Shown here: piece after piece, positions 11,442 through 63,605 of the stretch
How the letters are laid out: each line of letters opens with the position of its first letter
How positions within the stretch are numbered: position 1 is the stretch's first letter
NCBI GenBank assembly: GCA_965178125.1
Contig: CBCXTV010000001.1
Coordinates: 248,001-312,000 of the forward strand
Origin: Bilabrum cf. latius
Lineage: Eukaryota
DNA length: 64,000 nt
Direction of reading: 5' to 3'
The notes under the pieces: generated by a model
Told to the model about the DNA's origin: nothing
What the model saw: the letters and a program-made list of their open reading frames with translations, nothing else
The model's database searches: none
Position numbers and translations under genes: made by a program

Positions 11442-11845
11442 CGCCGGCCGCTGAGGTTTTCAGTCCGGTTCACACGAGCGCCGGAGCCGCAGCGGCAGCC
11501 GCTTCGGTGCTCCTGAAGGTCTAATGTCCTCAATGCGTTTCGTGTGCAAAAAGGATGTGGTTTCTACATGGGGGCATTCCGCAAGTTTCATGTGGTCCGT
11601 CGCGTTCGTCCGGGGGAGTGCTTGCCTAGTATTGGGAGCTTGCCTGACACACACACACGTGGCACCCAGCCTGATGGGTTGCAAGTGTGTGTGTGTCTCC
11701 GCAGTGCCGCGGTTGGGACCCGGCGGGTCGTTTGCTTTTACGTCGCCGCGTCGCGCGCCGACGAGACATTTCTTGGTCTCAGAAGCCTCTGCTTCCGGTA
11801 GGCGCGCCGTGTACACTCGCGGGCCGAAGGTGGGTGCGTTGCTTG

Positions 11846-12538
11846 ATGGCCTACGTCGGTATCGCCGATGCACCGTATGTGCCCGTGGTTGCCGCGTCGA
11901 CCTCCGAGCACGCCCCGGAGGGCGAGGTGGAGATGATGCTTGCGCCTCTTGCCGGAGATGTCGGTTTCAAGCGGCCTCGCGTGTTTCCTCCCGGTTCGCG
12001 ACTTCTTCCTAAGTCGCCGGCCCATCCGGCGGTGCTCATAACAGCGCTCGGCAGTGAGGCACCCCAGGACACACAGTGCGTCGTTTGGTCGGACTCTAAG
12101 GCTTTCGACCTCGCGGAGTTTGTATGCTCTTCCTGCGGCTGCAATCGTGTCATGGCGGACCTGAATCATCGTATGCGTGATCGTCTCGTACGTCGCGTGC
12201 AGCGCACGCTTTATGCCGATGATTCTCCGTGCGGCAGGGGTGCGATTTCGTGTCGTGCTTGTCGCGAGAAGGCGCGCGACGCGGCGCCGAAGACGTCGAT
12301 TATGAACGCGGCGAACAAGAAGAAGATCTCGGGAACTCTTCGCATGCAGTTGGATCTCATTGTAGAGACCGGGGAGCGGAAGGGTCAGCGTTGTACTGCG
12401 GAGAAAATTCTGACATTGGGAACGATGAAGCAGCACAGGGTTTTCGAGAGGGACCTTTACGATGAGGCATGGCGCGGGCTTGTTCGTCTGTCTGGACGCG
12501 AGGCTTGGAGCGATGACGACTCGTGGTCTCCGCGTTGA
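11846..12538 (+). CDS. Hypothetical protein with CxxC pairs
   Basis: ATG 11846 within ORF 11687-12538; CSSCGC and CRAC motifs; intact in both full copies. Confidence 0.5.
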   Translation: MAYVGIADAPYVPVVAASTSEHAPEGEVEMMLAPLAGDVGFKRPRVFPPGSRLLPKSPAHPAVLITALGSEAPQDTQCVVWSDSKAFDLAEFVCSSCGCNRVMADLNHRMRDRLVRRVQRTLYADDSPCGRGAISCRACREKARDAAPKTSIMNAANKKKISGTLRMQLDLIVETGERKGQRCTAEKILTLGTMKQHRVFERDLYDEAWRGLVRLSGREAWSDDDSWSPR

Positions 12539-12744
12539 GCTTGCGTGACGGTTTTCCCTCTTAACCTGGCCTCTTGCGTGGCGCTGCTTCCGCGTGTGGC
12601 CTGAGCGTGCGACCTAAGCGTTCGGCCTGCTGTCGCGTGTGACCTGAGCGAACGGGCGCTCGACAGTATCCCGCGTTTGTTGCTTCTGGGGTTCAAGAAA
12701 CTTGTACTTTTTGGGCTGTACGGTGGTCAGTGGTGCACGGTTCG

Positions 12745-12872
12745 TTCGCAGCCTCCGCGTTGTTGGAAAGCTATGGTGGAGCATGGTTCTTTTCGCAGCC
12801 TCCGCGTTGTGATCAAGCTACGGTGGAGCATGGTTCGTGAGCATGGTTCTTTTCGCAGCCTCCGCGTTGTTG
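12745..12872. repeat. Short imperfect tandem repeat
   Basis: TTCGCAGCCTCCGCGTTGT three times, interspersed with GAGCATGGTTC; also at ~39942-40069. Confidence 0.85.
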
Positions 12873-13372
12873 ACACGTGAAAGCTACGCGAACGTGACCA
12901 CACAATAGGCCATACCCCAGGTGAAATCCGGACTCGGACATCCAGACGAAACGGCATCATGCACACTGTTGAACACACAAATGACACTGAGCTCCACCGT
13001 AACGTAACTTTCCATCACCACCTGGTTTATTTTCTCCGCGATGGCAGCTTAGCGGTGACGCTGTGTCTTCGGGCATGAAGGGGCAAATCTTTGATTTTTT
13101 GGGCCCTGTTTCGGTCACCGAAAAGTCGTGTGATTTCTGGCGCGCAGGAGGAGTGACGCAAGGTATTTCTGAACCGTTTTCCGGACGCTTTCCGGGCCTC
13201 CCATGTGACCGCTTTTTGCGTACCGAAACACGTTCCGCGCGTGAGGAGCAGATGCGGATCTCCGCGGGGTCCTAGTTGTGTCCTTTTTCGGGGGACGAAA
13301 TCGGGCGCACTTGTCGTGCCGATTCGTGGTCGTCTCTGAGACCGGCTGCGAGTCGGGAAAGGTGCCCGGGAG

Positions 13373-14665
13373 ATGCTCGTGTCCTTGGCTTCGTATTTCT
13401 CCGCGTATTCTTCAAACGCGGGCGCACGTCTCCTACCGATTCGTGGTCGGTTTCCGAGGCCGATCGCGAGTCGGGAAATGCGCCCGCGATGCGCTCTCGA
13501 TCTCGGAAAGGGCGGGAGTCCGTTCTTGCATTCGGAATGGGCGGGGAGTTGCTTTTCCTGGGAGCATGTGCGAGATTCCTTCTCCGCGGGTCCTCTTTCG
13601 GCTTCGGCAGTCAGCAGCGCACTCTGCGGGAACGGCATTCTCCGAGTCTCTTTGCCGATGATGTCTGAGGAGAAACCCTCCGAGAGCATTGCTGTTTCCT
13701 TGGGAGACGGCCGCAATCTTCGTGCGCGTCGAGGCGCCGGTGATATGGGAAACGAGGGCGGCATGTTGGCGCGCGAGGTCGACGCGCCGGCGGAGCACGC
13801 CGGCGCGGCGGCAAGCGTCGATGATTCGCTCGGCCCCCACATCGAGAGCGGCGGCGCGGAGGCGGCGTCCACGGGGATGCTCGGAGAGGAGAGCGGCAAG
13901 GCAGCGCCGAAGGAGGACGCCGAAGACGACGGCGGCAAGAAGACGGAGGAGGAGGATGCTCGCGGCGGTGGACGTGCTGTGGTGCCCGGAGGTAATGACG
14001 ACGTATGGACCAACGCAGCAGCTTGGAAGGCGGGTGGCGGCGTGGCAGCCGGGGCGGTCTCTGGCGCTGATAGCTGGGATCAATGGGGGACCCCTGCGAA
14101 GTCGTCATGGGGGGAGACGTACGTGCTGCGGCAGGTCGCGTCGGAGCCGGCGGAGGAGGCGACATGGACTTGCAACGCGTGCCAGTGCTGCAAGCCCCGG
14201 TCGGCGTACTTTAAGAAGTGGAAGGACTGGATCCAACCAGTTTGCCGGGTGTGTTGCGACAAGTTCGACAACGCGACGCCGTGGTGGGTGTGGTGCAAGA
14301 GCTGCAAAAACGAGTATCCGGCGTACCGATTTCCCCAGATCCGCCGGAAGAAGGAGAACTTGCGCTATTTCTTCCCTGAGGACTGGTGCGCGAAGTGCCT
14401 GGTTGCGCGTGGCTGGAGTCTCCATGATGTCCGTTCCTCTGCGGGTGAAGCGAAGCGTTGGGTGCCAAAAGCTGGCGCGAATACCGGTGACGGCGACAAC
14501 GACGCTCGTGCTCCCGCACGCGACGAGCTTCCTGCAGGAGGCGCCGCCTCCTGCAGCAACGCCGTGCGTCAGAGTTCTTCGCGTGACGAGGCCTTGGATG
14601 ACATCAAGCGGGCCATGGAGCTTCTCCAGAATGCGGAAAGGTTCCTCCTCACGATGCCAGCGTGA
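13373..14665 (+). CDS. Zinc-finger-like protein (two CxxC...CxxC modules, Stc1-like spacing)
   Basis: CNACQCCKPRSAYF...PVCRVC and WCKSCKNEYPAYRF...WCAKC; acidic low-complexity N-terminal part; true start may be ATG 13658. Confidence 0.65.
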   Translation: MLVSLASYFSAYSSNAGARLLPIRGRFPRPIASREMRPRCALDLGKGGSPFLHSEWAGSCFSWEHVRDSFSAGPLSASAVSSALCGNGILRVSLPMMSEEKPSESIAVSLGDGRNLRARRGAGDMGNEGGMLAREVDAPAEHAGAAASVDDSLGPHIESGGAEAASTGMLGEESGKAAPKEDAEDDGGKKTEEEDARGGGRAVVPGGNDDVWTNAAAWKAGGGVAAGAVSGADSWDQWGTPAKSSWGETYVLRQVASEPAEEATWTCNACQCCKPRSAYFKKWKDWIQPVCRVCCDKFDNATPWWVWCKSCKNEYPAYRFPQIRRKKENLRYFFPEDWCAKCLVARGWSLHDVRSSAGEAKRWVPKAGANTGDGDNDARAPARDELPAGGAASCSNAVRQSSSRDEALDDIKRAMELLQNAERFLLTMPA

Positions 14666-14865
14666 CGCGGGAGCTTCCCGAATGGGTCCGTCGTACTGTG
14701 AGGGCGCTCCGGAAGGAAGAGCGCGAGTGAGTCATCCTTGCGCCGAGGTGAGCGCGACGTCGGAGGAGCACGGTCGTTTGATTGGGAACGATATGGTCGG
14801 CAGAGTGTGAAAATCCGAGTTTCTCGTGCAGGATTGGGCAGCTCTCTAGATATCTTGCCTGGGAA

Positions 14866-15846
14866 GGGTGTGATGTGGTGGGAGCGCTTCCGCCTCACGT
14901 GGCAGACGTCCACACTTCCTGGTTCCCCGGCAGGCTGTTTGGCGAGACGGAGTGGCAAAGCATCCGCCTGCTGATTCCTACTTTGTTACCTCGATTGTGA
15001 GCTCGGAGCTTGGGGCGGAGGATTCTGCGGGCAGCTCATGTGTGCCTAGAGTGTCATCCCGCGACCCTCTGACTTCTGTTCGTGGCTTTACCTCTTCGCG
15101 CAGGAAGATTCCTCATGAGGCAAGCCCGGTCCGAACTCGCGTGGGATGCCGTGCGCTGGTGCGGCTTCCACTCATCCCCGGGGTGGGGAGCGCTGGGTAA
15201 AGGATCGTCTGTCCCTGCAAGTTTCGATTCGACGAGGTGCGGCAGCATGACGCGGACCGAGGTGAAGTCCTTTGTCCGCGATAGGTCGCCGCGTCGCGCG
15301 GTGGCGACCCCACAGCGCCCCAATCCCATTCCGGAGAGGGGGTGTGATGCAGTGGGAGCCCTTCCGCCTCACGTGACAGACGTTCACACTTCCTGGTTCC
15401 CATAAGGTCTTCAGCACAGCGCATGCGAGGCAGGCTGTTCGGCGAGACGTAGTGGCATCGCCCCCGCCTGCTCATTCCTACTTTGTTACCTCGATTGTCA
15501 GCTTGGGGCTCGGGGCGGCGGATTCAGCGGGCAGCTCATGTATGCTGGAGTGTCATCCCGCGACCTCTGACTTCTGTCCGTGGCTTTACCTCTTCGCGCA
15601 GGAAGATTCCTCATGAGGCAAGCCCGGTGCGAACTCCTGTGGGATGCCGTGCGCTGGTTCGGATTCCACTCATGCCCGATGTGGGGAGCGCTAGGGTAAA
15701 GGATCGTCTGTCCCTGCAAGTTTCGATTCGGCTCGAGTCAATGTGAGGAAGGAGAGGTGCGGCAGCATGACGCGGAACGAGGTGACGTCCTTTGTCCGCG
15801 ATAGGTCGCCGCGTCGCGCGGTGGCGACCCCGCAGCGCCCAAACCC
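14866..15846. repeat. Diverged ~475-bp tandem duplication
   Basis: GGGTGTGATG..GTGGGAGC.CTTCCGCCTCACGTG at ~14866 and ~15340, colinear through ..GCGACCCC.CAGCGCCC; also in copies 2 and 3. Confidence 0.9.
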
Positions 15847-16288
15847 CGCCCCGCCTAGTCCTCACTCGACAGCGGTGTCGAACCTGCAGCAGCGCTTCGA
15901 GAACATGCAGCAGCGTGCGGAAAGCTTGAGCGCTCAGCTGGAGTACGCCCAAAGTGTGATCAGGCTGCTCTCAGGCCTGTTGCGCGATGAGGCTCCTCGG
16001 TTCTATGCAGACTTTGATCCCGTGATTCGGCGTGCGATGTCTGGCGCAAGCGGCTCCGTTGCGGGTAGGTCTTTCCGTCTTGTGGACGGAGGCGTCATCC
16101 ACGGACCTGACACAGCAGTCGCTGCTCCTCCGCGTCGTCTCATCGTTGAGGTGCGTACGGACTGGGAGATGACCGAGACTGCCTCAACTGTGCTGGATTC
16201 CTCAGGATCAGACGACATGGGTTCCGAGGACTCGCCGCCGCCGACCGTCGTCCTCCCCAGCGGCGCGGCGGGCGCCGGCGGTGCCTAG
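15767..16288 (+). CDS. Hypothetical protein with short coiled coil
   Basis: VSNLQQRFENMQQRAESLSAQLEYAQSVIRLL heptad pattern; copies differ by a frame-preserving 3-nt indel. Confidence 0.45.
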   Translation: MTRNEVTSFVRDRSPRRAVATPQRPNPAPPSPHSTAVSNLQQRFENMQQRAESLSAQLEYAQSVIRLLSGLLRDEAPRFYADFDPVIRRAMSGASGSVAGRSFRLVDGGVIHGPDTAVAAPPRRLIVEVRTDWEMTETASTVLDSSGSDDMGSEDSPPPTVVLPSGAAGAGGA

Positions 16289-16862
16289 TCCTCGGCAGCT
16301 CCTGCATCGGAGCCTCCTGTCGAGATTCGATCGCGCAACGTCGTTCCTTACATTGCTTGCCGTCGCATGTGCCGGGCGGTGGTGGGTGTGCGTGTTCGCC
16401 GAAAGTTCCCGGCCTCGTCTTCCTCAGGAGAGCTCCTCGACCCGAAATTGGCAGCTCAGCGCTGCCGTGGCCGATACAGTACCCGTGCATGGCCAGTTGG
16501 CAGCTACGCGCTGCCGTTGCCAATGTCGTCCGCACGAGAGCAGAGTGGCAGCTCAGCGCAGGCGAGAAACCGCGCTCGCAATGCTGCGAGGTGTATTCAA
16601 TGCTGTGCACGTGTCTATCCCGCTCCCTGGTTTTGTCTCGCTTGCGCCAGTGTGACCGCAGCAGAGCGGGTGCTTCCCGTGCGTCTTCAGCTTTGAGCAC
16701 TCCTCCAGCGACAGGAAGGCATTCGCTTGCTCTCGCTCCCCGCCTGCGTCCTATCCCTCCCGGGTATCTTCAGAGGCCACAGGCAGTGCGAAGCTTGGCA
16801 GCGGGTCCGTCCGCGTCGTTTCGGCTGTGAGCGATCTTCTGCCCGGTTCCTCACGCGTCATA

Positions 16863-18464
16863 ATGTCCTCTGCTTCGGTGCCGGATCAGCTCGCACGGAT
16901 CAGTAAGGAGCTGAAGTGTCTCAGAGACGCGAGACAACGGGCGCGCAATGGGCTGCGCCATCCGTGGTTGCGCGCCATGGAGGCACAGGTCGCTGAGGTT
17001 ATTCGTCATCACCCCGGCGGTGGCGAGGCAGCTCTTCGAACCTATGTCTCTCGTCAGTTGCAGAGTCGACAGGTTTCCACGCGGACGGCTTCGCAGGAGG
17101 AGTTTCAAAGGCAGGTCGATGAGGAGGTCGCGCTCACCATGAGGCGCCCAGCTGAGGCGTGGCAGCGAAATCCTCTTCGCTCATGTCATCGAGAGTCCGT
17201 GGCACGCGCAGAGACCTTTCTCGCCGAGGCTTCTGTCGTTGCTTGGATCGACCATGTGAACGAGCAGCGTGGGTGTGCTCCAACTGGGAACATGGTTTTC
17301 GCCATGCTTGCGAGGATGGGCGTTCGCGCGGGGAAGGACTCGGCTCGACGGCAGTGGCTCCTGCGCTTCCGTCGTCGTTGGCGGCTTCGGCATGGCCGAT
17401 TGAAGAAGCAGCCCCCGGTAACACTCGATTACGTCAGACTCGCGTGTCGTGTCTTCTATCAGTGGATTGAATTCGCAGAAGCGCGAGTGCCCCCCAACCG
17501 CCGCCTCGTCTTTGTGAATTTCGATGAGTCCAGCGTGCCCTTTGCCTTTCCGGGAATGCGCGGGTACATCGCACCGAGGTCAGGAACGGAGCCCGCTTCG
17601 CTTGGTTCGCGCACGGAGCGCCTCGCCTCGAATAGCAATCGAGGATCGTACACCTTTCTGGGTTTTATTAGCGACTGCCCGGAAATCCAGCGACGACTCC
17701 CGCGTATACTCATCGGGAAGCACACGCGGCTGAGCAAGCGCTTGATGCGTGGGGCGCCGAACCAAATGGTGGACGGAATGGAAGTCTGGGCCCGAGAGAG
17801 CTCGTGGGTGACGCAGTCCCTCATGTTCGACATTCTGCGTCGGCTTTTCGCTTCTTGGATGGACATTCAGCATGAGATCTATCCAATAGTGATACTTGAC
17901 TGCGCGCCCCAACACATTTCCACTGAGATTGTGAACTTCGCACACGGCCTTGGCATGGATCTCGTGTTTATTCCTGGTCGACTCACCTTCCTGCTTCAGC
18001 CGTTGGACGTTCTCGTCTTTCAGCTTCTTAAGCGCGACCTTCGGGAGACGTGGATGCAGGAGCGCTCGCGTCATGAAGCGGGTCATGTCGATGTCTCTTG
18101 CCATCTCAGGGTTGTCGCTGAGTGCACGAAGAGAGTGCTCTCGTCTGGCTCGTGGCAAGGCGCTTTCGATATGACAGGCATTACCAGCGGCAGGCGCCGC
18201 TTGCATTCGACCCTACGGCGCTTGTTTGAGTGTGACATGGAGGACATCTCCAGCGATGCTCCGTCTGTCGACCAGCTCCGCTTCATCAGCAGTCCGCAGC
18301 AGCCTCTCCCGCACGATGCGCTCATCAACAGGGCCCCAGTCGCGTCCGGACACGCGGTCGACGGAGGCGTCCACGGTGGTAACGCTCGCCGCGTGCCTCG
18401 TGGCCGCAGACTAAACGGATGGACCCCCCGCGATCGCGCTCACCCCTCGGCGGCCATGCCGTGA
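16863..18464 (+). CDS. pogo/Tigger-type (Tc1/mariner superfamily) DD35D transposase with CENP-B-like HTH
   Basis: VNFDES (first D), ILDCAPQH (second D), FIPGRLTFLLQPLD..VF..LK (third D, 35 residues after the second); WI...RG...QWLLRFRRRW resembles the CENP-B HTH. ORF opens at GTG 16827, first ATG 16863. Confidence 0.9.
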   Translation: MSSASVPDQLARISKELKCLRDARQRARNGLRHPWLRAMEAQVAEVIRHHPGGGEAALRTYVSRQLQSRQVSTRTASQEEFQRQVDEEVALTMRRPAEAWQRNPLRSCHRESVARAETFLAEASVVAWIDHVNEQRGCAPTGNMVFAMLARMGVRAGKDSARRQWLLRFRRRWRLRHGRLKKQPPVTLDYVRLACRVFYQWIEFAEARVPPNRRLVFVNFDESSVPFAFPGMRGYIAPRSGTEPASLGSRTERLASNSNRGSYTFLGFISDCPEIQRRLPRILIGKHTRLSKRLMRGAPNQMVDGMEVWARESSWVTQSLMFDILRRLFASWMDIQHEIYPIVILDCAPQHISTEIVNFAHGLGMDLVFIPGRLTFLLQPLDVLVFQLLKRDLRETWMQERSRHEAGHVDVSCHLRVVAECTKRVLSSGSWQGAFDMTGITSGRRRLHSTLRRLFECDMEDISSDAPSVDQLRFISSPQQPLPHDALINRAPVASGHAVDGGVHGGNARRVPRGRRLNGWTPRDRAHPSAAMP

Positions 18465-19483
18465 CCTCGACCACGACCATGTCAGGGGCGAACGCGACTT
18501 CGTCAACCTCGAGCACGACCATCCCAGCGGCGAACGCGGCTTCCTCGATGGGATCCCTGACCCCGACGAAGCTTCCCCGACCTCGGCCACGTGAACCTGC
18601 AGGCGCATTCTTGCCCGATGTGCCCGCGCAGGTGGCGGCCTGCACGGCGTGGGCGCCACCGTTTCGTCGACCAGACAGCTCAGCCACTCCGGCGACGCGC
18701 GAGGCGGCAACGTCCACGTGCATCAATCCGTGGACCGCTCTCTCCTGGTATCCGACACCACCGCAGCCGACGGACCCCCCTTCCGACAGGCCTCGCGAGG
18801 TACCGAACCGGAGCTCCCGGCAGCAGCGCAGGCGTCATGCTTGGGGCGGCACGTGGGTGTTCGACGACGCCATTACGCTCAGCGATTGCGGGTCGAGGGT
18901 GCAGATCGACGCGCCGCAGTCGAAGCTCTTGGCGATGGTCCTGCCCCGGAAGTCGGGCCAGTGGATTCCTCGTAGGCTGCGCTCGCGTACGATCTGGTAT
19001 TTGGCTGGGGAGCAGTCGGCCGTGATCACCAACCTCAAGTGCCAGGCCTGCAGTCGGGTCAAGCACGCGGACAGCTTCAACCCGAAGAGCTTGCGTCGGG
19101 CTCAGTACTCGTTGCTGCATTCCCTGTGGCCCGGCTACATACGACGTACCGAGCGGTCTATTTGGTGCACGCAGTGTGCGGTGGAGGACCAGTTGATGCA
19201 GGGCAACTTTCCGGACGGCTACTGTTTCCGGATCCGCGCCACACTCGAAATTTGCCATCAAGATCGCGTCGCGGCCAAGCTGTTTGCAGTGCACGACAGT
19301 AACGCTCTCTTCGAGCAGATCCCGCTGAGCTCCCGTGCGGCCATGGACGTGGCGGAGCAGTTGCGCCGATACTGGCAGGATGCCGTGTCCTCAGACGGCC
19401 AGAGCAACATCTTCCACAGCGACCACGTTTCGACAGACGACGACTCTGAGTTCGCACCGGGCGGACCGGAGAGCGTGCCGTGA
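18419..19483 (+). CDS. Hypothetical protein, S/T/P-rich N-terminus and one zinc-finger-like module
   Basis: LKCQACSRVKHADSF...IWCTQC; overlaps transposase end by 46 nt; conserved in paralogous mosaic fragments. Confidence 0.6.
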   Translation: MDPPRSRSPLGGHAVTSTTTMSGANATSSTSSTTIPAANAASSMGSLTPTKLPRPRPREPAGAFLPDVPAQVAACTAWAPPFRRPDSSATPATREAATSTCINPWTALSWYPTPPQPTDPPSDRPREVPNRSSRQQRRRHAWGGTWVFDDAITLSDCGSRVQIDAPQSKLLAMVLPRKSGQWIPRRLRSRTIWYLAGEQSAVITNLKCQACSRVKHADSFNPKSLRRAQYSLLHSLWPGYIRRTERSIWCTQCAVEDQLMQGNFPDGYCFRIRATLEICHQDRVAAKLFAVHDSNALFEQIPLSSRAAMDVAEQLRRYWQDAVSSDGQSNIFHSDHVSTDDDSEFAPGGPESVP

Positions 19484-19683: not shown

Positions 19684-19936
19684 TCTTGGTGGATCTCTCG
19701 AGGACATGGGTGGCATACCGTTGTGCATCCGTTCCCCGGGGGGGGCGGTCGCAGAAGAGTGCACACGAAAACAAGAGGAAAGGAGACCAACCCCCCAAAC
19801 CCACGTAGTGCGATCCTGGGGGGTACCCTATAAGGTACTAAGAATCCTTCTCCCGAAAATCGCACTACCTCGGGCCACAACGTCTTGGTGGATTCCTCGA
19901 GGACATGGGTGGCATACCGTTGTGCATCCGTTCCCC
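19684..19936. repeat. Second copy of the origin-like stem-loop (19738-19868) between 54-bp direct repeats
   Basis: 19738-19868 matches 8341-8466; GTAGTGCGAT 19805-19814 / ATCGCACTAC 19859-19868; flanks 19684-19737 and 19883-19936 nearly identical. Also at ~46885-47137 and ~60719-60971. Confidence 0.9.
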
Positions 19937-22703
19937 GTCGCTCCCTAACGTCTTCAGTGGCAGGTTCGGAAAAGACACCTCCGTAGGCACGCGACAAGTC
20001 CCGGTGAAGCGGGCTCGCACCGCGCTGGGCGGGAGATCGTGAGCGCTTAGAGGACCGGAGCTTTCGGGCGGGTGCGTGTCTCGACAAACTCCCTCTTGAC
20101 CACGGGCGGGGAACGTGTAGGGCGGAAGCTAAAGACACCGTAAGTAGCGGAGGGCTAACATTCCGTCCTTCGGTGAGAGCCAAAAGTTCGAGTCTGCGAG
20201 AGACTATTATACGAAGTTCTCCCCTCCTCATACGTGCGCATAGCCTCCTCACGCGGTAGCGCGAGCGCGGGACCCGGACCTGTCCCTGATGGGCGTGAAT
20301 CTGAACCCGGCGTACTCTCCTAGTCTGTCACTTCCACGACCTTGTTGTCGCGGAACCACTTGCACGGAGAGGAACCTGTCGTTCAAGCGGGTGCAGCCGG
20401 ACGCGCAGGTGTAGTGCATCGCCTTGCATATGTGCACGGCCAAGTAGATGCCGGAACCGTAGAGGTATCACACTTCCCGCGGAGCTTGGGTGGGTCTTTC
20501 GCTGCTGTCGTCTGCTCCAGAAGGTTTGCGCCAAAAACCGGAAAACTTCTAAGACAGAGGTGGGATGCCAGGAGCTCACGGTCCTGCCGGATTGGGGAGG
20601 TCCATGCCCACGCGAGCCGGGTACGCGTCCAAATCAACGCACAGAGCGGGAGCTGAGGGCGCCAAGGACGCTCACTGTCAGGCACACACAACGCGCACAG
20701 AATTCGTCATTTCGCGTTCAAAGCCTGCCAACGACGTGGCGCTTGGCGAAATGTGGTGGGTGGCGAAGATGTGGTACTTCGCCGTGCCTTTCTCTATGAC
20801 GGCCAAGCGTGCACTCGCCATCGCGCTCGGACGCCACAGGAAGAGATCCCAGCTCGCAGCTCCGCCGCCTCATCCAGGAGTAAGGCGAAGTCGAATCGTG
20901 AATAGCGCTTCGCACCTTCACAGAGCCGAGGATCACAGATAGGCCCCGCCTCACAGAACCCAGCGCCATAGGGCAGAGCGTGAAGTACCTGGCCGCTTGG
21001 CTTGGCCGGACCCCCGCCCGCCCTCCGCCGGCAGCTCCTCCCGTCCGTCCCTATGGAGGCAGATCCGCGTACCCATGCTGCGGCGGGATCCTGACACAAT
21101 CCGCTCCTCTTAGTGTGTGGCCGTGGGGCATGAGTGGAGCAGCATCGGGCCCTCACCAGCCGTGGAACGGAAGCAGCTCTCCGTGCGGCAGCTGTGCGAT
21201 GCACAGACCTCGTCCCAAAGATACGGATCCATTTTGCCGTCTTCCCGCGCATACTGCATCGCTCTGCAAAACTGCATTGCGCAGTGGATCCCCGAGCGTC
21301 GACTGCCAATAGCAGGCGGCCTCGCAAGGCCTTCATGGACGCAGGATTTGGGCTTCTTCATCGTAAATTTGGGGTCTGCTCAGCGCGCGAAAATTCCAAC
21401 GCTTCAAAATGATCCGGACGTCGCGAGAAGGGAACTCGTTGCTTGCTCACCTGTGCGGAGGGGTTGGATGCCCGATGTGCTAAAGAGAGGATACTGTCCG
21501 TCGGCGTTCTCTCTTCACCTTGTGCGGAAGGGTTGGGTGCCTGATTTCAGACAGAGAAGGTCTCGTCCGTTGGGAGCGCTTAGGAATACTTCCGGATGGG
21601 GCGTCCAGACGCGGTCCAGGACCTCCAGCTCGTCGGGGTCAATGTCGCCCGCGCCGTCCGTGCCTTTGACGCCTCTGGATCGATGATGCCCACGATCTTT
21701 GTCATCTCGGACGACACACGTCCCAGCTGCTCTTTGGTAGTGCATTACCTCATTGACCCCGAAGCGTTGAATATTTAATGAAGACCCTTCGGAAGCTGGC
21801 GAAGTTTGTCAGCTTGTCGGAGCGCAGCCTGGGTCCTTGTCAACAAACATGGAGGGTTTCGGGGCGGATTTCCAGCGTTCCGCCTTGATATCGAGTGCAC
21901 CTCGAGGTCGGGATCGAAGCGGGGCGGGCGGTTCGTCATCCTCTGTGATACGCTTAGGAGGCGCCGACTTGATGCCCACCTTGTCCCCCAATCACTCCAG
22001 ACGTAACTGGGGAACTCTTCCCGTCGTGGGCCGGGTACGCCTCCGAATCCCACGCGAGCCGTTCCCCACGGCGCACCGATAAGCGCCGCTGCAAGCGTAC
22101 CAAGAGGGGCGTACCAAGAGGTGCTTCCTTCGCTCGGCAGTGTGGCACTTCAAGCAGTAGAATGTGCCACTCCCAGCACGTAGGTGGAGTTTGCGAGCTG
22201 CCGGCCGACATGCTCGTGTGGTGACCTCCGGCGCACCGATAAGTGCCGCTGCAAGCGCACCAATACTACTTCGCTTGGGAGCGAGGCACTTTAAGCAATG
22301 CAGTGCGCCGGTTTTCGTGCACGCCCAGTCGCGCGGACGCCGCAGGTGGCTTGGCCGTAGGATAGAATTAGTGGCGGGTCGGTTTTGCATGTCTTCCCTC
22401 TCCTCTTGATATGGTACACAAAGGCAAGAGCCTGACGATGCAGACGGAACTCCTGGATTTCACCGCCACATTCCTAGTCAAGACAGCCCTCGACTAAACA
22501 GACGCCGAGTTATCTTGAGCAGCATCCCACGACGCAGTGATGTGGACGGCAAGGGTGATGCCATGCTTTCCGGGCCTCCCATGTGACCGCTTTTTGCGTA
22601 CCGAAACACTTTCCGGGGTCGACGCCCCGGCGGAACACGCCGGCGCGGCGGCAAGCGTCGATGTTGCGGGCGGCCCAGCCATGAGGTACATGATCAAGTA
22701 CAC

Positions 22704-22990
22704 GGAAAGCACGCAGAGCGTCGTCAATCCGTTCGTGAGCCGCGAGTTCCAAAAGGTCTTCGAGACATCCGCCCGGAAAGCACGCAGAGCATCGTCAATC
22801 CGTTCGTGAGCCGCGAGTTCCAGAAGGTCTTCGAGCACATCCCCCCGGAAAGCACGCAGAGCATCGTCAATCCGTTCGTGAGCCGCGAATTCCAGAAGGT
22901 CTTCGAGCACATCCCCCCGGAAAGCACGCAGAGCATCGTCAATCCGTTCGTGAGCCGCGAATTCCAAAAGGTCTTCGAGCACATCCCCCG
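22704..22990 (+). repeat. 60-bp tandem repeat derived from the GT gene (ESTQSIVNPFVSREFQKVFEHIP)
   Basis: CGGAAAGCACGCAGAGCATCGTCAATCCGTTCGTGAGCCGCGA.TTCCA.AAGGTCTTCGAGCACATCCCCC units; homologous to 6112-6183; further arrays at ~23273, ~49910, ~50753, ~63744. Confidence 0.9.
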
Positions 22991-25900
22991 GATGATGTCG
23001 AGCATGCGGACGCCCTGCTCCGGATGATGTCGGCCATGCGGACGCTCTTCCCAGACCTTGCGCGGCAGCGGGACGAAAATGGAGCTCTCCCTGCACCGCA
23101 AGCACGCCGGAAACCTGGTGCACTTCCACGTGTGCATGACGGACTCCGAGAGGTCGCATCGTTGTCGCGTGGCGGAGGATTTCATTTGGGCCGGCAGCAG
23201 GCCGAATGTCGTGTACGGCTTTAAGGTACCGAACCGGAGCTCCCGGCAGCAGCGCAGGCGGAGACATCCGCCCGGAAAGCACGCAGAGCATCGTCAATCC
23301 GTTCGTGAGCCGCGAGTTCCAGAAGGTCTTCGAGCACATCCCCCCGGAAAGCACGCAGAGCATCGTCAATCCGTTCGTGAGCCGCGAATTCCAGAAGGTC
23401 TTCGAGCACATCCCCCCGGAAAGCACGCAGAGCATCGTCAATCCGTTCGTGAGCCGCGAATTCCAAAAGGTCTTCGAGCACATCCCCCGGATGATGTCGA
23501 GCATGCGGACGCCCGGCTCCGGATGATGTCGGCCATGCGGACGCTCTTCCCAGACCTTGCGCGGCAGCGGGACGAAAATGGAGCTCTCCCTGCACCGCAA
23601 GCACGCCGGAAACCTGGTGCACTTCCACGTGTGCATGACGGACTCCGAGAGGTCGCATCGTTGTCGCGTGGCGGAGGATTTCATTTGGGCCGGCAGCAGG
23701 CCGAATGTCGTGTACGGCTTTAAGGTACCGAACCGGAGCTCCCGGCAGCAGCGCAGGCGGCATGCTTGGGGCGGCACGTGGATCTTCGACGACGCCATTA
23801 CGCTCAGCGATTGCGGGTCGAGGGTGCAGATCGACGCGCCGCAGTCGAAGGTCTTGGCGATGGTAATGCCCCGGAAGTCGGGCCAGTGGATTCCTCATAG
23901 GCTGCGCTCGCGTACGATCTGGTATTTGGGTGGGGAGCAGTCGGCCGTGATCACCAACCTCAAGTGCCAGGCCTGCCCCGGAAGTCGGGCCAGGGCATTC
24001 TCCGAGTCTCTTTGCCGATGATGTCTGAGGAGAAACCGTCCGAGAGCATTGCTGTTTCCTTGGGAGACGGCCGCAATCTTCGTGGGCGTCAAGGCGCCGG
24101 TAATATGGGAAACGAGGGCGGCATGTTGGCGCGCGAGGTCGACGCCCCGGCGGAGGGGGGGGGCCGTACGTGCCGTGACAGGTCGCGCCGGAGCCGGCGG
24201 AGGAGGCGACATGGACTTGCAACGCGTGCCAGGGCCTAAGCCCCGGTCAGAGTACTTCAAGAAGTGGAAGGACTGGATCCAACCAGTTTGCCGGGTGTGT
24301 TACGACAAGTTCGACAGCGCGACGCCGTGGTGGGTGAGGTGCAAGAACTGCAAAAACGAGTTTCCGGCGTACCGATTTCCCCAGATCCGCCGGAAGAGGG
24401 ACGGGCCTCGATCTCGGAAAGGGCGGGAGTCCGTTCTTGCATTCGGAATGGGCGGGGAGTTGCTTTTCCTGGGAGCATGTGCGAGATTCCTTCTCCGCGG
24501 GTCCTCTTTCGGCTTCGGCAGTCAGCAGCGCACTCTGCGGGAACGGCATTCTCCGAGTCTCTTTGCCGATGATGTCTGAGGAGAAACCGTCTGAAAGCAT
24601 TGCTGTTTCCTTGGGAGACGGCCGCAATCTTCGTGGGCGTCGAGGCGCCGGTGATATGGGAAACGAGGGCGGCATGTTGGCGCGCGAGGTCGACGCGCCG
24701 GCGGAGCACGCCGGCGCGGCGGCAAGCGTCGATGATTCGGGCGGCCCCCACATCGAGAGCGGCGGCGCGGAGGCGGCGTCCACGGGGATGCTCGGAGAGG
24801 AGAGCGGCAAGGCAGCGCCGAAGGAGGACGCCGAAGACGACGGCGGCAAGAAGACGGAGGAGGAGGATGCTCGCGGCGGTGGACGTGCTGTGGTGCCCGG
24901 AGGTAATGACGACGTATGGACCGACGCAGCAGCTTGGAAGGCGGGTGGCGGCGTGGCAGCCGGGGCGGTCTCTGGCGCTGATAGCTGGGCTCTATGGGGG
25001 ACCCCTGCGAAGTCGTCATGGGGGGAGACGTACGTGCCGCGGCAGGTCGCGTCGGAGCCGGCGGAGGAGGCGACATGGACTTGCAACGCGTGCCAGTGCT
25101 GCAAGCCCCGGTCGGCGTACTTCAAGAAGTGGAAGGACTGGATCCAACCAGTTTGCCGGGTGTGTTGCGACAAGTTCGACAACGCGACGCCGTGGTGGGT
25201 GTGGTGCAAGAACTGCAAAAACGAGTATCCGGCGTACCGATTTCCCCAGATCCGCCGGAAGAAGGAGAACTTGCGCTATTTCTTCCCTGAGGACTGGTGC
25301 GCGAAGTGCCTGGTTGCGCGTGGCTGGAGTCTCCATGATGTCCGTTCCTCTGCGGGTGAAGCGAAGCGTTGGGTGCCAAAAGCTGGCGCGAATACCGGTG
25401 ACGGCGACAACGACGCTCGTGCTCCCGCACGCGACGAGCTTCCTGCAGGAGGCGCCGCCTCCTGCAGCAACGCCGTGCATCAGAGTTCTTCGCGTGACGA
25501 GGCCTTGGATGACATCAACCGGGCCATGGAGCTTCTCCGGAATGCGGAGAAATTCATCTCCGCGATGCCATCGTGCATGCAGTGTGCGGTGCAGGACCAG
25601 TTGATGCAGGGCATCGTCAAAGACCAGGCCCTCTTGGATATCTTCTCCGGCAAGATAACGGACTGGATCAAATACCATCCGGCCACTCTTGGGGCGATCC
25701 AATCCTATCGAAACGCATGGCTGTGGGCCGACGGAATGGCTCATGGTTGTCGAGGATGATATCGAACCTCGCGAAGCATGCGTGGATCGGCTACTCGTAG
25801 TTCTTCACGCCATCGCGAAACCCCAAGGTGACGCAGATGGCCATGTTAGCGGGGTCAGAAGCACCGAGAATGGTCAGCCTCCAGCGCGGAAACTCACCTC

Positions 25901-26418
25901 ATGCACAACTGCGAGCGCCTCTTGGACGTGCGGACCTATCCGGCGCACTGGGTAGACAACACATTTGTGGTCCCCTTCCACGTGGGCATGGGCCTAAAGT
26001 GGTATCTCATCAGCCCGGAGGGGAGGAAGGCGCTCCTGAAGATGCGGATCCCGAACCGAAGCTTCGAACGCTGCGTCTGGCGCCGCATCTTCGACACGTT
26101 CCAAGGGCCGGTATGTAATGTCCGTCGTGATGTCCGTGTGCGCGGCCCTGAGTTGGGGGGTTGTCTCGTCTGGGAAAAAACAGAGCGCGTGCCCATCTCC
26201 TACGAAGACTTGTGCGGTGTTCACGAGCACGCCGGCGAAACCTCGAGTTTTGGCATCAAGATCGTGTCGCGGCCAGGCTGTACGACGGCGGCAAGAAGAC
26301 GGAGAAGGAGGATGCTCACGGTATCGCCCTGATCATCTGCACGACTTCGTGGGGCTCCATGACGTAACGGCGAGCGAGAACATTGACTGGTGGCGTGGCT
26401 GGAGGATCTCGGGAACAC

Positions 26419-26585
26419 ACGGCGGGCGAGCCGTTTTTCAAAAGGAGCACGGGTCCTTCGGGACGCCATTTCACTTACGGCGGGCGAGCCGTTTTCCGAA
26501 TGGTGCGGGGGTCCTACTGATGCACACGGCGATCGCTGGTTCACTCACGGCGGGCGAGCCGTTTTCCGAATGGTGCGGAGTCCTC
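26419..26585. repeat. Three ACGGC-GGGCGA-GCCGT-TTT mini-hairpin repeats
   Basis: At 26419, 26477, 26547; five copies in unit 2 (52588-52875) through a 139-bp duplication. Confidence 0.85.
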
Positions 26586-27098
26586 CAGATGACCACGGTG
26601 ATGGGTGGCAGCATGTCATAGGCGCGCCGTCGGAAGCTTCCCCTTCGAGTGCTGCCTAAAACTGAGAAACCTGGAGATCCTAGCATCGTATGGAGGCAAG
26701 AGGTAACACCTTGGGGTCCGTTCTCCGCTTCAATTCCTGTCCCAAATCCGATTCCCATTTCGAGACCGAAAAAGGTGACCCGGAAAACGACGGTACTTAT
26801 TTCTGAACCGTTTTCCGGACGCTTTCCGGGTCTCCCATGTGACCGCTTTTTGCGTACCGAAACACGTTCCGCGCGTGAGGAGCAGATGCGGATCTCCGCG
26901 GGGTCCTATTTGTGTCTTTTTTCGGGGACGAAATCGGGCGCACTTCTCGTGCCGATTTGTGGTCGTCTCTGAAACCGGCTGCGAGTCGGGAAAGGTGCCC
27001 GAGATGCTTGTGTCCTTGGCTTCGTATTTCTCCGCATATTCTTCAAACGCGGGCGGCAGTGGCTCCTGCGCGGGAGCTTCCCGAGTGGGTCCGTCGTG

Positions 27099-27295
27099 CA
27101 GTGCGCTGGGTAGGTCCGCAGGTCAAGGAGGCGCTCGCAGTTATAGACGTAGGTGGAGTTTGCGAGCTGCCGGCCGACATGCTCATGTGGTGACCGGAGG
27201 TCACCACATGAGCATGTCGGCCGGCAGCTCGCAAACCCCACCTGCGTCTATAACTGCGAACGCCTCCTTGACCTGCGGACCTACCCAGCGCACTG
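27099..27295. repeat. Long hairpin/palindrome, 97-bp arms with 3-nt GGA loop
   Basis: 27099-27195 is the reverse complement of 27199-27295 with 3 mismatches; loop 27196-27198. Confidence 0.95.
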
Positions 27296-27379
27296 AGCAG
27301 ACAACGCATTTGTGGTCCCCCTCCACGTCGGCATGGGCTTGAAGTGGTACCTCAGGAGGATTTCACTTGCGCCGGCCCC

Positions 27380-28281
27380 CAGGATTTCGCCAAAAATGGC
27401 CGATCCGCACAAGGAATTTAAGTTGCGGCGACACAGCTCGGACCCTGGCTTTTTTTTGGCTGTTTCGGGGCCCCAAGAGGGCTCCCGGCCCCAAAAAGGG
27501 CAAAACGCGAGGTTGTGGTGGAAAAAATGGGCCCCAAGGAGTCTCCAAACGACGCAAAACGCCACGTTGTGGTGGATTTTAGAGCCCCTAAATCGCCCAA
27601 AAAAGACGCAAAACGCCACGTGGTGGTGGATTTTAGAGCCCCTAAATCGCCAAAAAAGACGCAAAACGCCACGTTGTAGTGGATTTTAGAGCCCCTAAAT
27701 CGCCCAAAAAAGACGCAAAACGCCACGTTGTGGTGTTTTTTTTGAGCGTTTTCGGGGGGCTCGGAAGGGGACCCCCCCAGGATTTGGCCAAAAATGGCCG
27801 ATCCACACAAGGACTTTAAGTTGCGGCGACACAGTTCGGGCCCCGGTTTGTTTTTGCGGTTTGGGGGCCCCGAGAGGGCTCCCGGCCCCAAAAAGGGCAA
27901 AACGCGAGGTTGTGGTGGAAAAATGGGCCCCAGGCAGCCCCAAACGACGCAAAACGCCACGTTGTGGTGGATTTTAGAGCCCTAAATCGCCCAAAAAAGA
28001 CGCAAAACGCCACGTTGTCGTGGATTTTAGAGCCCTAAATCGCCCCAAAGAGACGCAAAACGCCACGTTGTAGTGGATTTTAGAGCCCCTAAACCGCCCT
28101 AAAAAGACGCCAAACGCCACGTTGTGGTGTTTTTTTTGAGCGTTTTGGGGGGGCCCGGAAGGGGACCCCCCCAGGATTTGGCCCAAAATGGCCGATCCAC
28201 ACAAGGAATTTAAGTTGCGGCGACACAGTTCGGGCCCCGGGGTTTGTTTTGCTGTTTGGGGGCCCCAAGAGGGCTCCCGGG
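27380..28281. repeat. Nested 54-bp/395-bp tandem repeat, copy 2
   Basis: Same array as 185-1085. Confidence 0.95.
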
Positions 28282-31270
28282 AGGCCCTAGAGTGGCCCTT
28301 CTCCGCTTCAATTCCTGTCCCAAATCCGATTCCCATTTCGAGACCGAAAAAGGTGACCCGGAAAACGACGGTACTCTCCGTCACTCCATCTGGCGGCGAA
28401 AATTGCCTCAGTTTCCGGTCCCCGATTCCGGGCCCAGGGACCCCCGAAATTCCCGATTCCGCGCAGTGCCGAAAGCTCGACATAAACCACAAACACGACA
28501 CACAACACAACACGATAGCGCCTCCCCACGCGCGGGATTGGGTCCTTCCGCTCGCTGCATGTGAGCTGCAGTGTGTTCTTGCCGGGAATGTCACTGGAAG
28601 TCGCGCTGCAGTCTGCTCAGGGCGCCTTATGACCATGAAGGCGTCTCAGCACCCGCGACGGCAAGAGGGGGCACGCACGACGTTGCGAAGCACCCGCCCT
28701 GGGTGAAGAAACTGCGTATCCACAGGAGTCACGTTCAGGTGCGCGAGAATTGGAAAGGCGGGGTAACTGGTGCAGAGGAGCTTGTTCGCAGCGCGGCTTC
28801 CACCAGCGCCGCTGACGGTAAGATGCATCGGTCTCGGTACATGAGTCGGCACGGTGTTGCGTGATTGACTTCACGATGCGGGAGTGTGCAGCCTTCCGCA
28901 GCGGGAGAATTGTATCTCCCCACGACCGCCGAAAAAAAAAAGAAGGCTATGCTGGACTCGTTCCAGGGAAGGCTATGCGATGAGTATCTCTAGGCGCTTT
29001 CCGGAAGACCCACCCACTACACGCTGGTCAGCCCTCCCAAGCGGGAGTGAACCGCGGATCCGCGGGCCCGTGAGCGCTGCTGCTACGATCATTTCTGCCC
29101 GTTTGACTCTCGCCCACTCTTGCCGTGACCAAAGACGCGCAGATCCTTATGACGCATGACACCTCGTCGAGGTGTCGAGACTGCCTCACATTCCCGTTAC
29201 AAAGACCCACAGCACTGCGACAACGAAATCGGTCACGAAGAGAGCAAGAGGCCGCGCACCTGAGCATCACAAAAACCCCGAGAGACATAAACAACACCGT
29301 CCCGTGAAGTCCCTGCGACGAGGGGATGCTAAGCGGCTCCCACGGCGGCTCCTCTGCGGGAAAAGCTGCCGCAGACCTCGAGATGGGATGCACATGACTG
29401 CGAAGATTGCGGAACTCGTCCGAAGCCGGTCGCACGAGGGTCACAGCGAATGGAGGCATATCTATGAAATAGAGTCTGCGTGCAAAGCAGCATTCCAACG
29501 ATCGTCCGCATTCTTCCGAGCAAATCCTTGGGAGCACACATCCTGCGGACGACATCTCTTTTCTATCCACCCCAGCGTACTCCCCGCACACACTTCTCGC
29601 GAATGATTGAGAATTCTGTGCGGCACATGTAATATCAGGCTACCATGATACGCGGAATGGCGTGCTATTGCTCGCACGTTCGTGCGCCCCCTTCCGAATG
29701 CGCTTACCACATCACTATGTTCGTCGGCAACCGTATACACCGTAGGGGTCTTCCCTCCGACACCAAGCGTACACGACTGGCCGTAATAGCGCAGCGTAGA
29801 TGTTTCGGACGTCGCCCAGGACAAGTGTCGACGCCCGGTTCGTCACGATCACTACGTGTGCACTTCACTCACCGCCCTCCAGCCGCTAGACTTCTTTTGG
29901 AGCGCGACATCCTACGACGCGCTATGACACGTAGCCGTAAACCGCAGACGGCCTCGCGTTCACTGCTTGCAGCGCAAGAGCGTGAACAAGAACCGCCCGC
30001 GTGGCACACCTTCGCAGGCGCGGAAGACAAAAAGTTCCTTCTAAGCTTGTATTCGGGTCCGAAAGCCAAATTCCACTTCGGGGTCGAGAAGGGCGACCCG
30101 GGAAATCACCGTACGCTCTGTGAATCCATTTCCCGGGGAAAGTCCCCGAGTTCCCGCTACCCGGTCCCAGGCCCAGCGACCCAGGAAAGTTCCCGTCCCC
30201 CCGCATGCGGAAACCTCCCACGAAGCACGCCCACCTCACGCTTCACACGCAAAAGTCCAGGAGTCAAATCCATTCCGGACCCAGCAGTTCACCCCCCGTG
30301 ACGATTGGGAAAGGCTCTTGCACACACCTTCTCGTCCGAGCAGTCTATGGAGCACACACCTGTCTTCGTTGCCTTTTCCGGCCAAAAATGCAGGGAGTTC
30401 GAAGGGGAAGTAGCAAGCGCGGAAGACCGCTTTCGAAACGCAGGTGCTCAGGGAAAAACAACCAGAGCGTCCCTGATCCTCGGCAGAGCCGTCCAGGAGG
30501 GACGGGCACGGACGGGCATCGCAGATCTTGCAGCGCCACCATTCGCCGGGATGGGCGACCGGACGAGGGCGACCACAAGTACGTAGCGTGCGACGTCCGT
30601 CAGTCGCCATGTTGCGCTGATTCGCTTTCGCGGCACGACTTCCAGGGCCGGCCTTACTCACTCCTCGGAGTCCGCGTGTGGATTCTCCCCTGCGCATGAT
30701 CTGCCGCTCTAGATGCTACACAAAGATCCCGCTCGGATGACCCCCTCTGTGCATTCTGCAAGATTTTACGCGCCTCCATTCAATGCGCGAAGCATGCACC
30801 GCAGCAGTCTGAGTCCGGTGACCACCTTCAATAGCGTGGGACAAATTCCGTCCGCGATGTGCATTCGGGCATGCTCCCCTTTCCGAGTCTCTGTGACCCG
30901 TAGTGCGTCCGCGGCCAACGACTCAGGACTCCACGATGGTACGCACGAGTTGCATTCCTTGCACGAAGCGTGCGGAGAGAAAGCGATGCTCAGACATCGA
31001 GGCGCTTGGAGGGTCTGCACGCGACATGCTTCGAGAGGCCATGCAAACATGCGAAACCAGAACTGAGGTTCCTCATCGTTCCTGCTGTCGAGCGCTCAAT
31101 TGGGGCATCGGATCAGGACGAAGCTCGCGAAGAGAGGGCGCGGGTGTCCCCATCCAAAAATCCGCCGCCTTCAAGGCTCATGTTCCCGGATCCTGCATTC
31201 GCGAGTTTCGGGAGCAGAAGTGCAAGATCGCCGCTGGACACACAGCGCATGCCATTTCCCGTCTCTGGAG

Positions 31271-63500: not shown

Positions 63501-63605
63501 TCACCGCCACATTCCTAGTCAAGACAGCCCTCGACTAAACAGACGCCGAGTTATCTTGAGCAGCATCCCACGACGCAGTGATGTGGACGGCAAGGGTGAT
63601 GCCAT

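Follow-up and report, generated by a model that had tools for sequence, protein, structure and literature searches.

The final 4.5 kb of a 27-kb repeated mobile element in Bilabrum cf. latius is a genuine patchwork, put together from stretches of genes that the element itself carries, all laid in the same direction. We analysed it in a stretch of 64,000 nucleotides (contig CBCXTV010000001.1 of assembly GCA_965178125.1, positions 248,001 to 312,000 of the forward strand), called the window herein, whose own numbering is used throughout. Self-comparison revealed that the window is a head-to-tail array of a ~27.2-kb unit, with unit 1 at 1–27195 and unit 2 at 27196–53199, and the patchwork, or mosaic zone, lies at the end of both. 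We consider it most probable, at roughly 0.55, that the zone is an inherited, unconstrained scar left as breaks were repaired or forks restarted with template switching, that it is still a rearrangement hotspot, and that it holds no working gene or library.

22565–27098, plus strand: mosaic zone of unit 1 (zone 1), 91% of its bases tiled by plus-strand copies of the unit body
49772–53199, plus strand: mosaic zone of unit 2 (zone 2), 2884 of 3428 bp tiled, with 23 of 24 BLAST rows on the plus strand

The recognisable genes of the window all lie on the plus strand, and four of them act as sources of the mosaic:

3904–6636, plus strand: glycosyltransferase (GT) gene, 910 amino acids, N-terminal domain of GT-A fold
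9156–11441, plus strand: Rep gene, 761 amino acids, HUH nuclease domain and superfamily 3 (SF3) helicase
13373–14665, plus strand: zinc-finger gene 1 (ZnF1), 430 amino acids, CxxC-rich, no family match; the most frequently copied source
18419–19483, plus strand: zinc-finger gene 2 (ZnF2), 354 amino acids, CxxC-rich

When the end of unit 1 (22565–27195) was compared with its body (1–22564) using BLAST, 4213 of 4631 bp were tiled by body copies and 32 of the 35 rows lay on the plus strand; the three minus-strand rows were a self-complementary 25-mer and the right arm of the palindrome that ends the unit. Apart from this terminal palindrome, the same-strand layout offers no fold-back double strand. 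The pieces are 29–1169 bp long, are 87.5–100% identical to their sources, and derive from the following stretches:

4278–4799, 4991–5115 and 6087–6219: GT
10166–10199, 10475–10620 and 11280–11331: Rep
13164–14694, in several pieces: ZnF1 and its flanks
18798–19051, 19165–19205 and 19244–19283: ZnF2
1103–1179: non-coding

An earlier reading of this DNA from its letters alone (the sequence-only reading) had described same-strand pieces of the element's own genes stitched together, with the HUH motif of Rep among them, and this was borne out: the Rep piece 10475–10620 (amino acids 440–489) holds the invariant H..H pair (Rep amino acids 456 and 458). Its labels for the GT, Rep, zinc-finger and transposase genes likewise hold, by fold or by Pfam. 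Scrambling spread evenly over the unit, which it had named as fatal to its proposal, is not what we found, as bins at 23–26 kb consist wholly of duplicated sequence, whereas bins of the body are duplicated only at the sources or at local tandem repeats. The self-comparison it had called for gave the following blocks for zone 1, together with the junctions described below:

Blocks a–b: from 13187–13237 (a) and 13777–13836 (b)
Block c: from GT 6087–6219, with 72-bp repeats
Blocks d–e: from Rep 10166–10199 (d) and Rep 10475–10620 (e)
Blocks f–i: from ZnF2, starting at 18798 (f), and from ZnF1 (g, h and i)
Blocks j–l: from ZnF2 19165–19205 (j), GT 4278–4799 (k) and GT 4991–5115 (l)
Blocks m–o: from ZnF2 19244–19283 (m), ZnF1 13926–13965 (n) and Rep 11280–11331 (o)
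Blocks p–s: unmatched (p), then from 1103–1179 (q), 13164–13424 (r) and 14666–14694 (s)

Nine junctions are common to zones 1 and 2, and the blocks follow the same order in both:

Shared junctions 1–5: 13237/13777, 13836/6087, 6219/filler/10166, 10199/10475 and 10620/18798
Shared junctions 6–9: 19205/4278, 19283/13926, 13965/11280 and 1179/13164

Since junctions and order are shared, the mosaic dates from the common ancestor of the units and did not arise by separate scrambling in each. Reconstruction from the shared and private junctions of the two zones shows that a chain of ~17 junctions existed before units 1 and 2 split, namely a b C d e f G' j k l m n o p q r s followed by the right end, where G' is 13634–14664. 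The claim that the order differs between units was therefore mistaken as to order; what differs are duplications, deletions and one patch of ZnF1 sequence. After the split, zone 1 gained a 499-bp tandem duplication, one extra 72-bp repeat, the deletion 13795/14109 and the ZnF1 patch. Zone 2 gained an 843-bp duplication (49821–50353 and 50664–51196), which we attribute to unequal exchange between two copies of block b, as well as the new junctions or deletions 10617/13998 and 4787/5101, a perfect 139-bp duplication within p, and a terminal deletion of ~490 bp through which the palindrome is gone from the boundary between units 2 and 3. The features private to zone 1, or best described there, are:

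22762–23760, plus strand: tandem duplication of 499 bp, 2.0 copies with 99% matches, in zone 1 only
22703–22989 (4.0 copies) and 23264–23488 (3.1 copies): 72-bp (24-codon) repeats of GT 6113–6188
24407–25575, plus strand: ZnF1 copy from 13496–14664, 98% identical overall, with the left junction 14355/filler/13496
24338–25756, plus strand: open frame of 473 codons, comprising ZnF1 amino acids 42–431, ZnF2 amino acids 249–263 and GT from amino acid 125 onward
26371–26720, plus strand: block p (350 bp), with three 58–70-bp repeats, the only stretch of the zone for which the unit contains no source
26721–27097, plus strand: tail of zone 1, in which 1103–1179 is joined directly to 13164–13424 and then to 14666–14694

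In total, at least eight structural differences separate the two zones, versus no indel above 5 bp in the 22.9-kb bodies, which are 99.67% identical across 22,935 columns (1–22921 versus 27196–50128) and differ by 76 small changes, the largest indel being 5 bp. These data support the mosaic zone as a continuing rearrangement hotspot. The sequence-only reading, which had the rest of the unit nearly invariant and the scrambling local, is thus upheld for the bodies and the 23–26 kb bins, though not for sparse pieces at 19.7–22.3 kb and at the unit ends, of which the left (39–159) is GT-like at 83%:

19740–19873, plus strand: from 8342–8471 (90%)
20840–20988, plus strand: from 7919–8068 (81%)
21399–21439, plus strand: from Rep 10772–10813 (98%)
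22178–22229, plus strand: extra copy of the last 49–52 nt of the right end, ~340 bp ahead of the zone

Chimeric joins made by an assembler in a very high-copy, variant-rich repeat are a very improbable source of the mosaic, although the family is of the kind in which they could arise. Sequencing run X1 places 18,743 short contigs (mostly ~80–400 bp) on 7 kb, 5567 of which fit two places, and among the pieces listed none spans the whole stretch. The summed word depth in X1 is in the 1e5 range, a measure from which no copy number is derivable, and together its contig and depth pattern points to a very high-copy, variant-rich family. Against an artefact stand the nine junctions reproduced independently in zones 1 and 2; a zero-difference contig across 26213–26506, carrying four junctions, in runs X4 and X8 of two studies; an X7 contig that spans 26330–26506 with one junction; and two further junctions reproduced by P0033, a protein of another assembly record that is 99.2% identical to the fused ZnF1–ZnF2–GT frame over 24572–25756. 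Moreover, the blocks are 0–12% diverged from their sources, unlike chimeric joins of present-day reads. X1 also has both joints specific to zone 2 (26101>26228 and 26891>27382), one of its contigs displaying the joint made by the 490-bp deletion between units 2 and 3. This contig comparison covered four runs (X1, X4, X7 and X8) over 21500–28500 and used short contigs, with low-depth X1 joints having sides of fewer than 30 letters excluded from evidence; for the array as such and for the other junctions, support comes from the window together with their duplication in two units.

Part of 22000–27400 occurs in 17 coded runs from 13 studies, covering at least 11 organism codes and two sediment metagenomes, and 10 of the 17 contain half or more of the stretch's words. 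In the three compared runs of other studies most contigs are at least 99% alike to the window. Either a widespread associate or contaminant may carry the element, or several hosts may have it in common. The commonest class of copy difference in the runs is T in the window and C elsewhere (12–17 places per run versus 1–7 for other classes). A real bias of this kind was not borne out by the unit-private changes, which number 34, 2 and 5 and have a mixed spectrum.

The make-up of the junctions is in keeping with repair by template switching. We counted them by eye on aligned junctions, allowing for point divergence, as a script based on exact runs over-calls fillers near mismatches. Microhomology of 2–4 bp was present at 4 of the 17 ancestral junctions (GAA at 10199/10475, CA, GTG and CGGA), and the others are blunt (0–1 bp) or carry fillers of 3–20 bp. 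Joining at microhomology, described as frequent from the letters alone, is thus confined to a minority, while the GAA example given for it, where Rep 10199 meets the next Rep piece, is exact. Three fillers are templated within the unit. The f/g filler is an exact 17-mer of ZnF2 18945–18961, located 107 bp upstream in the same block; the c/d filler is a 20-mer that re-copies GT 6191–6210 from ~25 nt upstream with three mismatches; and the r/s filler, at 27054–27071, is an exact 13-mer of the transposase gene (17351–17363; 18 nt with flanks). This last filler is the sole transposase-derived sequence in the zone, so that the reported lack of transposase fragments holds for larger pieces but not for the filler; the absence of transposase pieces apart from it is not significant (p = 0.30). 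The gene in question is:

16827–18464, plus strand: DDE_1 (pogo-type) transposase gene, Pfam DDE_1 at E = 2e-11

A record of template use is also preserved in the ZnF1 block of zone 1. Over ~1.08 kb (source 13496 to ~14576; window up to ~25487) this block is of source type, whereas its last 60 bp (from ~25519; source 14608–14660) carry ten variants of zone-2 type, and an older ZnF1 copy, 97% identical to that of zone 2, survives as block h of zone 1. The switch from source type to zone type marks a recent patch, in which a break in the old copy was mended from the intact gene; as homology lies at its right edge and a filler junction at its left, the repair was homologous on one side only. The three templated fillers, this fresh ZnF1 copy, and the at least eight structural events set against a quiet body support the earlier proposal of a template-switching hotspot. 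When the ZnF1 copies at 13496–14664, 40693–41861 and 54527–55695 were compared, the unit 1 gene showed ~9 private changes, and the unit 3 copy had two states (14141 and 14360) in common with the zone-2 copy; these shared states may be a short trace of zone-to-gene conversion or an old polymorphism.

The pieces have decayed free of coding constraint. Differences between fragments and genes fall evenly on codon positions 1, 2 and 3 (45/42/44), and in-frame coding–coding junctions (7 of 14, p = 0.15) are not above chance, so frame preservation was rejected as a sign of coding. Since the blocks are 87.5–100% identical to their sources, compared with 99.67% for the two bodies, the pieces differ in age and most of them predate the unit duplication. 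A donor-cassette library, as the sequence-only reading had offered, is not supported, because the sole clear conversion tract runs from gene to zone and the fragments lack coding constraint. The same data make it very doubtful that fragment capture here makes new chimeric proteins in the exon-shuffling style of Helitrons or Pack-MULEs. A case can be made from the 473-codon ZnF1–ZnF2–GT frame, which stays open across two consecutive in-frame junctions (24338–25756) and whose fusion is called as protein P0033 in the other record, and Helitrons are described as capturing gene fragments and making chimeric transcripts (PMC4778049 and PMC4528327). Yet the in-frame count and the even codon-position spread argue otherwise, zone 2 breaks the frame differently, the fragments come from the element's own genes and not from host genes, and, with G+C this high, long open frames are frequent on either strand. 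An exact look-up of 10 zone open reading frames (ORFs) in the protein collection returned 0 of 10.

The zone directly adjoins the following structure at the end of the unit:

27099–27295, no strand: palindrome (197 bp) at the junction of units 1 and 2, with 97-nt arms that are 97% complementary and a 3-nt spacer

This palindrome consists of the abutted inverted ends of neighbouring units and, as single-stranded DNA, folds at -136 kcal/mol (z -28). It is long and near-perfect with a short spacer, as is expected of a palindromic fragile site. The rearrangements are spread over 4.5 kb; the zone adjoins the palindrome, and one boundary has lost the palindrome in the 490-bp deletion. Its arms are ~80% similar to GT 4555–4634 in their outer part. 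The inner part of both terminal inverted repeats (39–159 and 27099–27178) is ~80% similar to GT 4555–4693, so that the palindrome arms themselves stem from a GT fragment through inverted duplication. The terminal-repeat pattern had no match in the viral_contigs and genome_contigs collections.

In the sequence of events that we favour, breaks or stalled forks near the right end would have been mended repeatedly, partly through illegitimate joining of ends and partly through template switching, both short-range and ectopic, with many same-orientation copies of the element available as templates. The outcome would be a chain of direct-oriented gene pieces whose joins are blunt, show 1–4 bp of microhomology or contain templated fillers, and later change has come from unequal exchange among internal repeats, further deletions and at least one patch from the intact ZnF1 gene. 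The zone would have no function of its own, its palindrome and internal repeats would make it break-prone, and rearrangements probably persist there because nothing in it is under selection. Given the position of the zone beside the palindrome and the loss of the palindrome at one boundary, palindrome-provoked breakage seems the most economical trigger.

Several points weigh against this scenario. The link to the palindrome draws on adjacency and one deletion. All pieces are direct-oriented, and classic events of microhomology-mediated break-induced replication (MMBIR) or fork stalling and template switching (FoSTeS) usually involve inversions. Four ORFs that account for 33% of the body supplied twelve of the 16 ancestral pieces (p = 6e-4, a value that non-independent ZnF1 pieces and unannotated genes could inflate), a bias that pure break repair does not predict. 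The diverged copies P0056 and P0044, described below, are mosaics too, with c and o blocks reused in zone-type form by P0056; such persistence of mosaics in the family could hint at retention. If gene conversion homogenises the bodies, their rearrangement rate could look more different from that of the zone than it is, and the head-to-tail array could be the assembler's path through mixed circular or variant copies.

The main rival is an origin in Rep-driven copy choice. Here, rolling-circle or recombination-dependent replication would jump along a circular or concatemeric template and leave deleted mini-units locked between full units, a course of events that we regard as possible but unlikely. 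The unit does encode an HUH/SF3 Rep: its AlphaFold model (pLDDT, predicted local distance difference test, 83.7) has full-length adeno-associated virus 2 (AAV2) Rep68 as its top fold match (E = 6e-8), followed by the Rep of a CRESS virus (one whose single-stranded DNA is circular and encodes Rep) and then by papillomavirus E1 and B19 NS1. An alignment with eleven relatives keeps the H..H pair, the Y..K motif, GKT and DE. Neither Rep nor GT has a sequence match in Pfam or the PDB, so that their identity rests on predicted folds, and Rep has no relative in the viral_contigs collection. The direct orientation throughout is what jumps along one template strand would give, and there is local collinearity, with i ending at 14664 and s starting at 14666, and j ending at 19205 and m starting at 19244. 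A deleted form of the unit is, furthermore, present in the array:

53200–64000: unit 3, a short form without 1180–13163 (~12 kb with GT and Rep), its 1179/13164 junction lying at 54196

In unit 3, 187–1177 runs directly into 13162 onward, and the 1179/13164 junction that defines this short form recurs in the tails of both zones (53105/53106 in zone 2); the deleted form has hence been propagated. Blocks q, r, i and s, taken together, run in short-form order. Read by eye, both ends of the segment absent from unit 3 have, a few bases further in, a 9-nt inverted repeat, which raises the prospect that the GT–Rep module is an insertion and that the short form did not arise by deletion.

Replicative copy choice would also explain why units abut with a 3-nt spacer, like a copied circle junction, and rearranged defective DNAs are known for eukaryotic single-stranded DNA viruses, as outlined in PMC3187698. 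However, each unit inherits the mosaic as an internal part, with no molecule of its own; the would-be mini-units have no left end between them, and of additional right-end pieces there is just one (22178–22229). The 43 breakpoints share no motif that could be a candidate nick site, the highest 4-mer enrichment being 6.6-fold on 7 counts, and ascending and descending jumps (10 to 7) are no better than random. No origin was identified, the candidates being the palindrome and the hairpin-plus-T-run repeats of block p. The likeness to defective-interfering CRESS DNA that the sequence-only reading had drawn therefore stands as an analogy, given a mosaic in every unit, no separate molecule and no breakpoint motif.

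The repeats of block p each consist of a short GC hairpin followed by a T-run motif, and zone 2 has five copies. Comparison of block p with the rest of the unit (blastn and tblastx) returned nothing below E = 0.04. The motif occurs 15 times in the window versus 0.08 expected (26418–26610, 52587–52920, 13174, and 8238 on the minus strand), clustered in block p and present once just past the 1179/13164 junction, and it could serve as an iteron that binds a protein or as part of a promoter.

We regard as improbable the alternative that the zone is a self-regulatory locus, that is, a one-strand archive putatively transcribed from the end or the palindrome into antisense, small or decoy RNAs that would damp GT, Rep and the zinc-finger genes and so control copy number. 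The enrichment for coding pieces and the strictly uniform orientation speak for it, as do same-block mosaics in diverged copies of the element. Two such copies are known from ORFs retrieved with a GT query. P0056 combines a zone-type c block (92.6% identical to the zone copies and 61% to the GT gene) with a ZnF2 N-terminal piece and the end of a zone-type o block, and P0044 combines left-end or GT-like pieces with pieces like 8310–8471 and Rep 11231–11308; mosaics thus persist for long and are a trait of the family. A third candidate, P0040, was rejected as an independent copy since it is 100% identical to a zone-2 ORF of the window. The sole match of ZnF2 is to the Stc1 zinc-finger domain, below threshold and a lead only (E = 0.051; 14.6 bits versus a cut-off of 24.8), and Stc1 is a zinc-finger adaptor that connects RNA interference with heterochromatin in fission yeast. 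Besides that match being below threshold, the fragments have diverged by up to 12% from their would-be targets in the manner of neutral decay, no inverted copies are present for double-stranded RNA save the GT-like palindrome arms (~80% to GT), and the zone varies freely from one unit to the next through duplication and deletion.

A bolder form of this idea, in which a maintained one-strand archive beside the terminal palindrome draws continual renewal from the genes and gives rise to regulatory RNA, or to defective templates that compete, so as to limit copy number, in a previously undescribed family of large eukaryotic elements with a parvovirus/CRESS-like Rep, a pogo-type transposase and a GT25-like glycosyltransferase, is equally improbable; hints of it come from the coding enrichment, the refreshed ZnF1 block and the reuse of blocks in diverged copies. 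If the zone did make regulatory RNA or compete as a defective template, mobile elements would have gained a novel type of device for limiting themselves. As a rearrangement scar, the zone is unusually legible junk, in which ~17 ancestral junctions and at least eight later events can be ordered, one of them showing one-sided homologous repair. It would then document, in nature, the ways in which a high-copy element beside a long palindrome is remodelled by break repair and template switching.

The zone also flags its carrier, a 27-kb tandem unit with a Rep68-like initiator, a pogo-type transposase and a GT25-like glycosyltransferase. The unit joins the Rep68-like HUH/SF3 Rep, the pogo-type DDE_1 transposase, the GT25-like glycosyltransferase and two CxxC-rich proteins on one strand. 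The closest folds to the GT N-terminal domain (model pLDDT 82) are GT25 collagen galactosyltransferase and mimivirus R655, and 2 of 17 GT relatives matched Glyco_transf_25 weakly. The DDE gene has a pogo-like neighbourhood in the Atlas and relatives that also bear PF03184; a relative at 85% occurs on two short metagenome_contigs sequences, neither of which has a mosaic zone. A Rep relative, P0002 (51%), and a transposase relative, P0014 (50%), each come from a contig of 14,535 bp, and the Rep/transposase pairing may therefore be conserved. A literature search for an element that has both a Rep of this type and a DDE transposase brought up no relevant description, which does not prove absence from print. 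The body has tandem repeats near its left end (181–1084, 398-bp period, 93%, with nested ~53-bp repeats) and downstream of ZnF1 (14929–15847, 500-bp period, 87%). Searches of the window gave 0 Rfam matches at the gathering threshold, 0 tRNAs with ARAGORN, and 0 matches to a dinoflagellate spliced-leader relic with up to 3 mismatches allowed.

Compared with known systems, the zone differs from Helitron or Pack-MULE capture in that the captured pieces are the element's own GT, Rep, ZnF1 and ZnF2 and not host genes. Drosophila flamenco, a uni-strand PIWI-interacting RNA cluster, is likewise a stretch packed with transposon fragments in one orientation, but the matched fragments here come solely from the carrier element and not from many families, and the zone is in every unit and not at a single host locus. 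Recombination in single-stranded DNA viruses is treated in PMC3187698. As in the defective DNAs of geminiviruses, nanoviruses and other single-stranded DNA viruses with a Rep, deletion and rearrangement have affected genes of the helper itself, with direct orientation kept (own-unit sequence makes up 91% of the zone), an HUH/SF3 Rep is nearby, and a deleted short form has been propagated. Unlike those DNAs, the mosaic is internal to units, is not an independent circle and is without a recognised origin stem-loop, and the unit, at ~27 kb, has a transposase; genomes of the geminivirus or nanovirus type are about ten times smaller.

Derivatives of abortive gap repair, such as Ds-like elements and MITEs (miniature transposable elements with inverted repeats), are alike in having a parent with a DDE (here pogo-type) transposase and terminal inverted repeats, short microhomology or filler at junctions, and the orientation of the parent kept; microhomology-mediated miniaturisation of a Tc1/mariner element at the birth of a MITE is outlined in PMC3814204. 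Those derivatives have one to few junctions and are separate short elements, whereas ~17 are chained in 4.5 kb here and the zone lies inside each full-length unit. Only the right repeat (27099–27195) stands at the end of the zone, with no preceding left end, and the element also encodes Rep. Templated insertions are a mark of end joining of the polymerase-theta type, and with this process and with FoSTeS/MMBIR the zone shares several switches in a small region, 0–4 bp of microhomology, and fillers copied from 25–110 bp away or from another gene of the unit. Complex rearrangement by serial template switching, as sketched in PMC2621351, departs from our case: the zone is without inverted segments (32 of 35 rows are direct, the rest being the palindrome arm and the 25-mer), microhomology of at least 2 bp is found at 4 of 17 junctions and not at most of them, the events accumulated over time (87.5–100% identity) and not in a single burst, and paralogous mobile-element copies serve as the templates. 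The fragility of long palindromes is known (PMC7999016 and PMC3855049). While the palindrome of this element stems from abutted inverted mobile-element ends and may itself be functional, it resembles those sites in being near-perfect, with ~100-bp arms and a 3-nt spacer, at the edge of an unstable zone, and in having been lost from one unit boundary through a 490-bp deletion.

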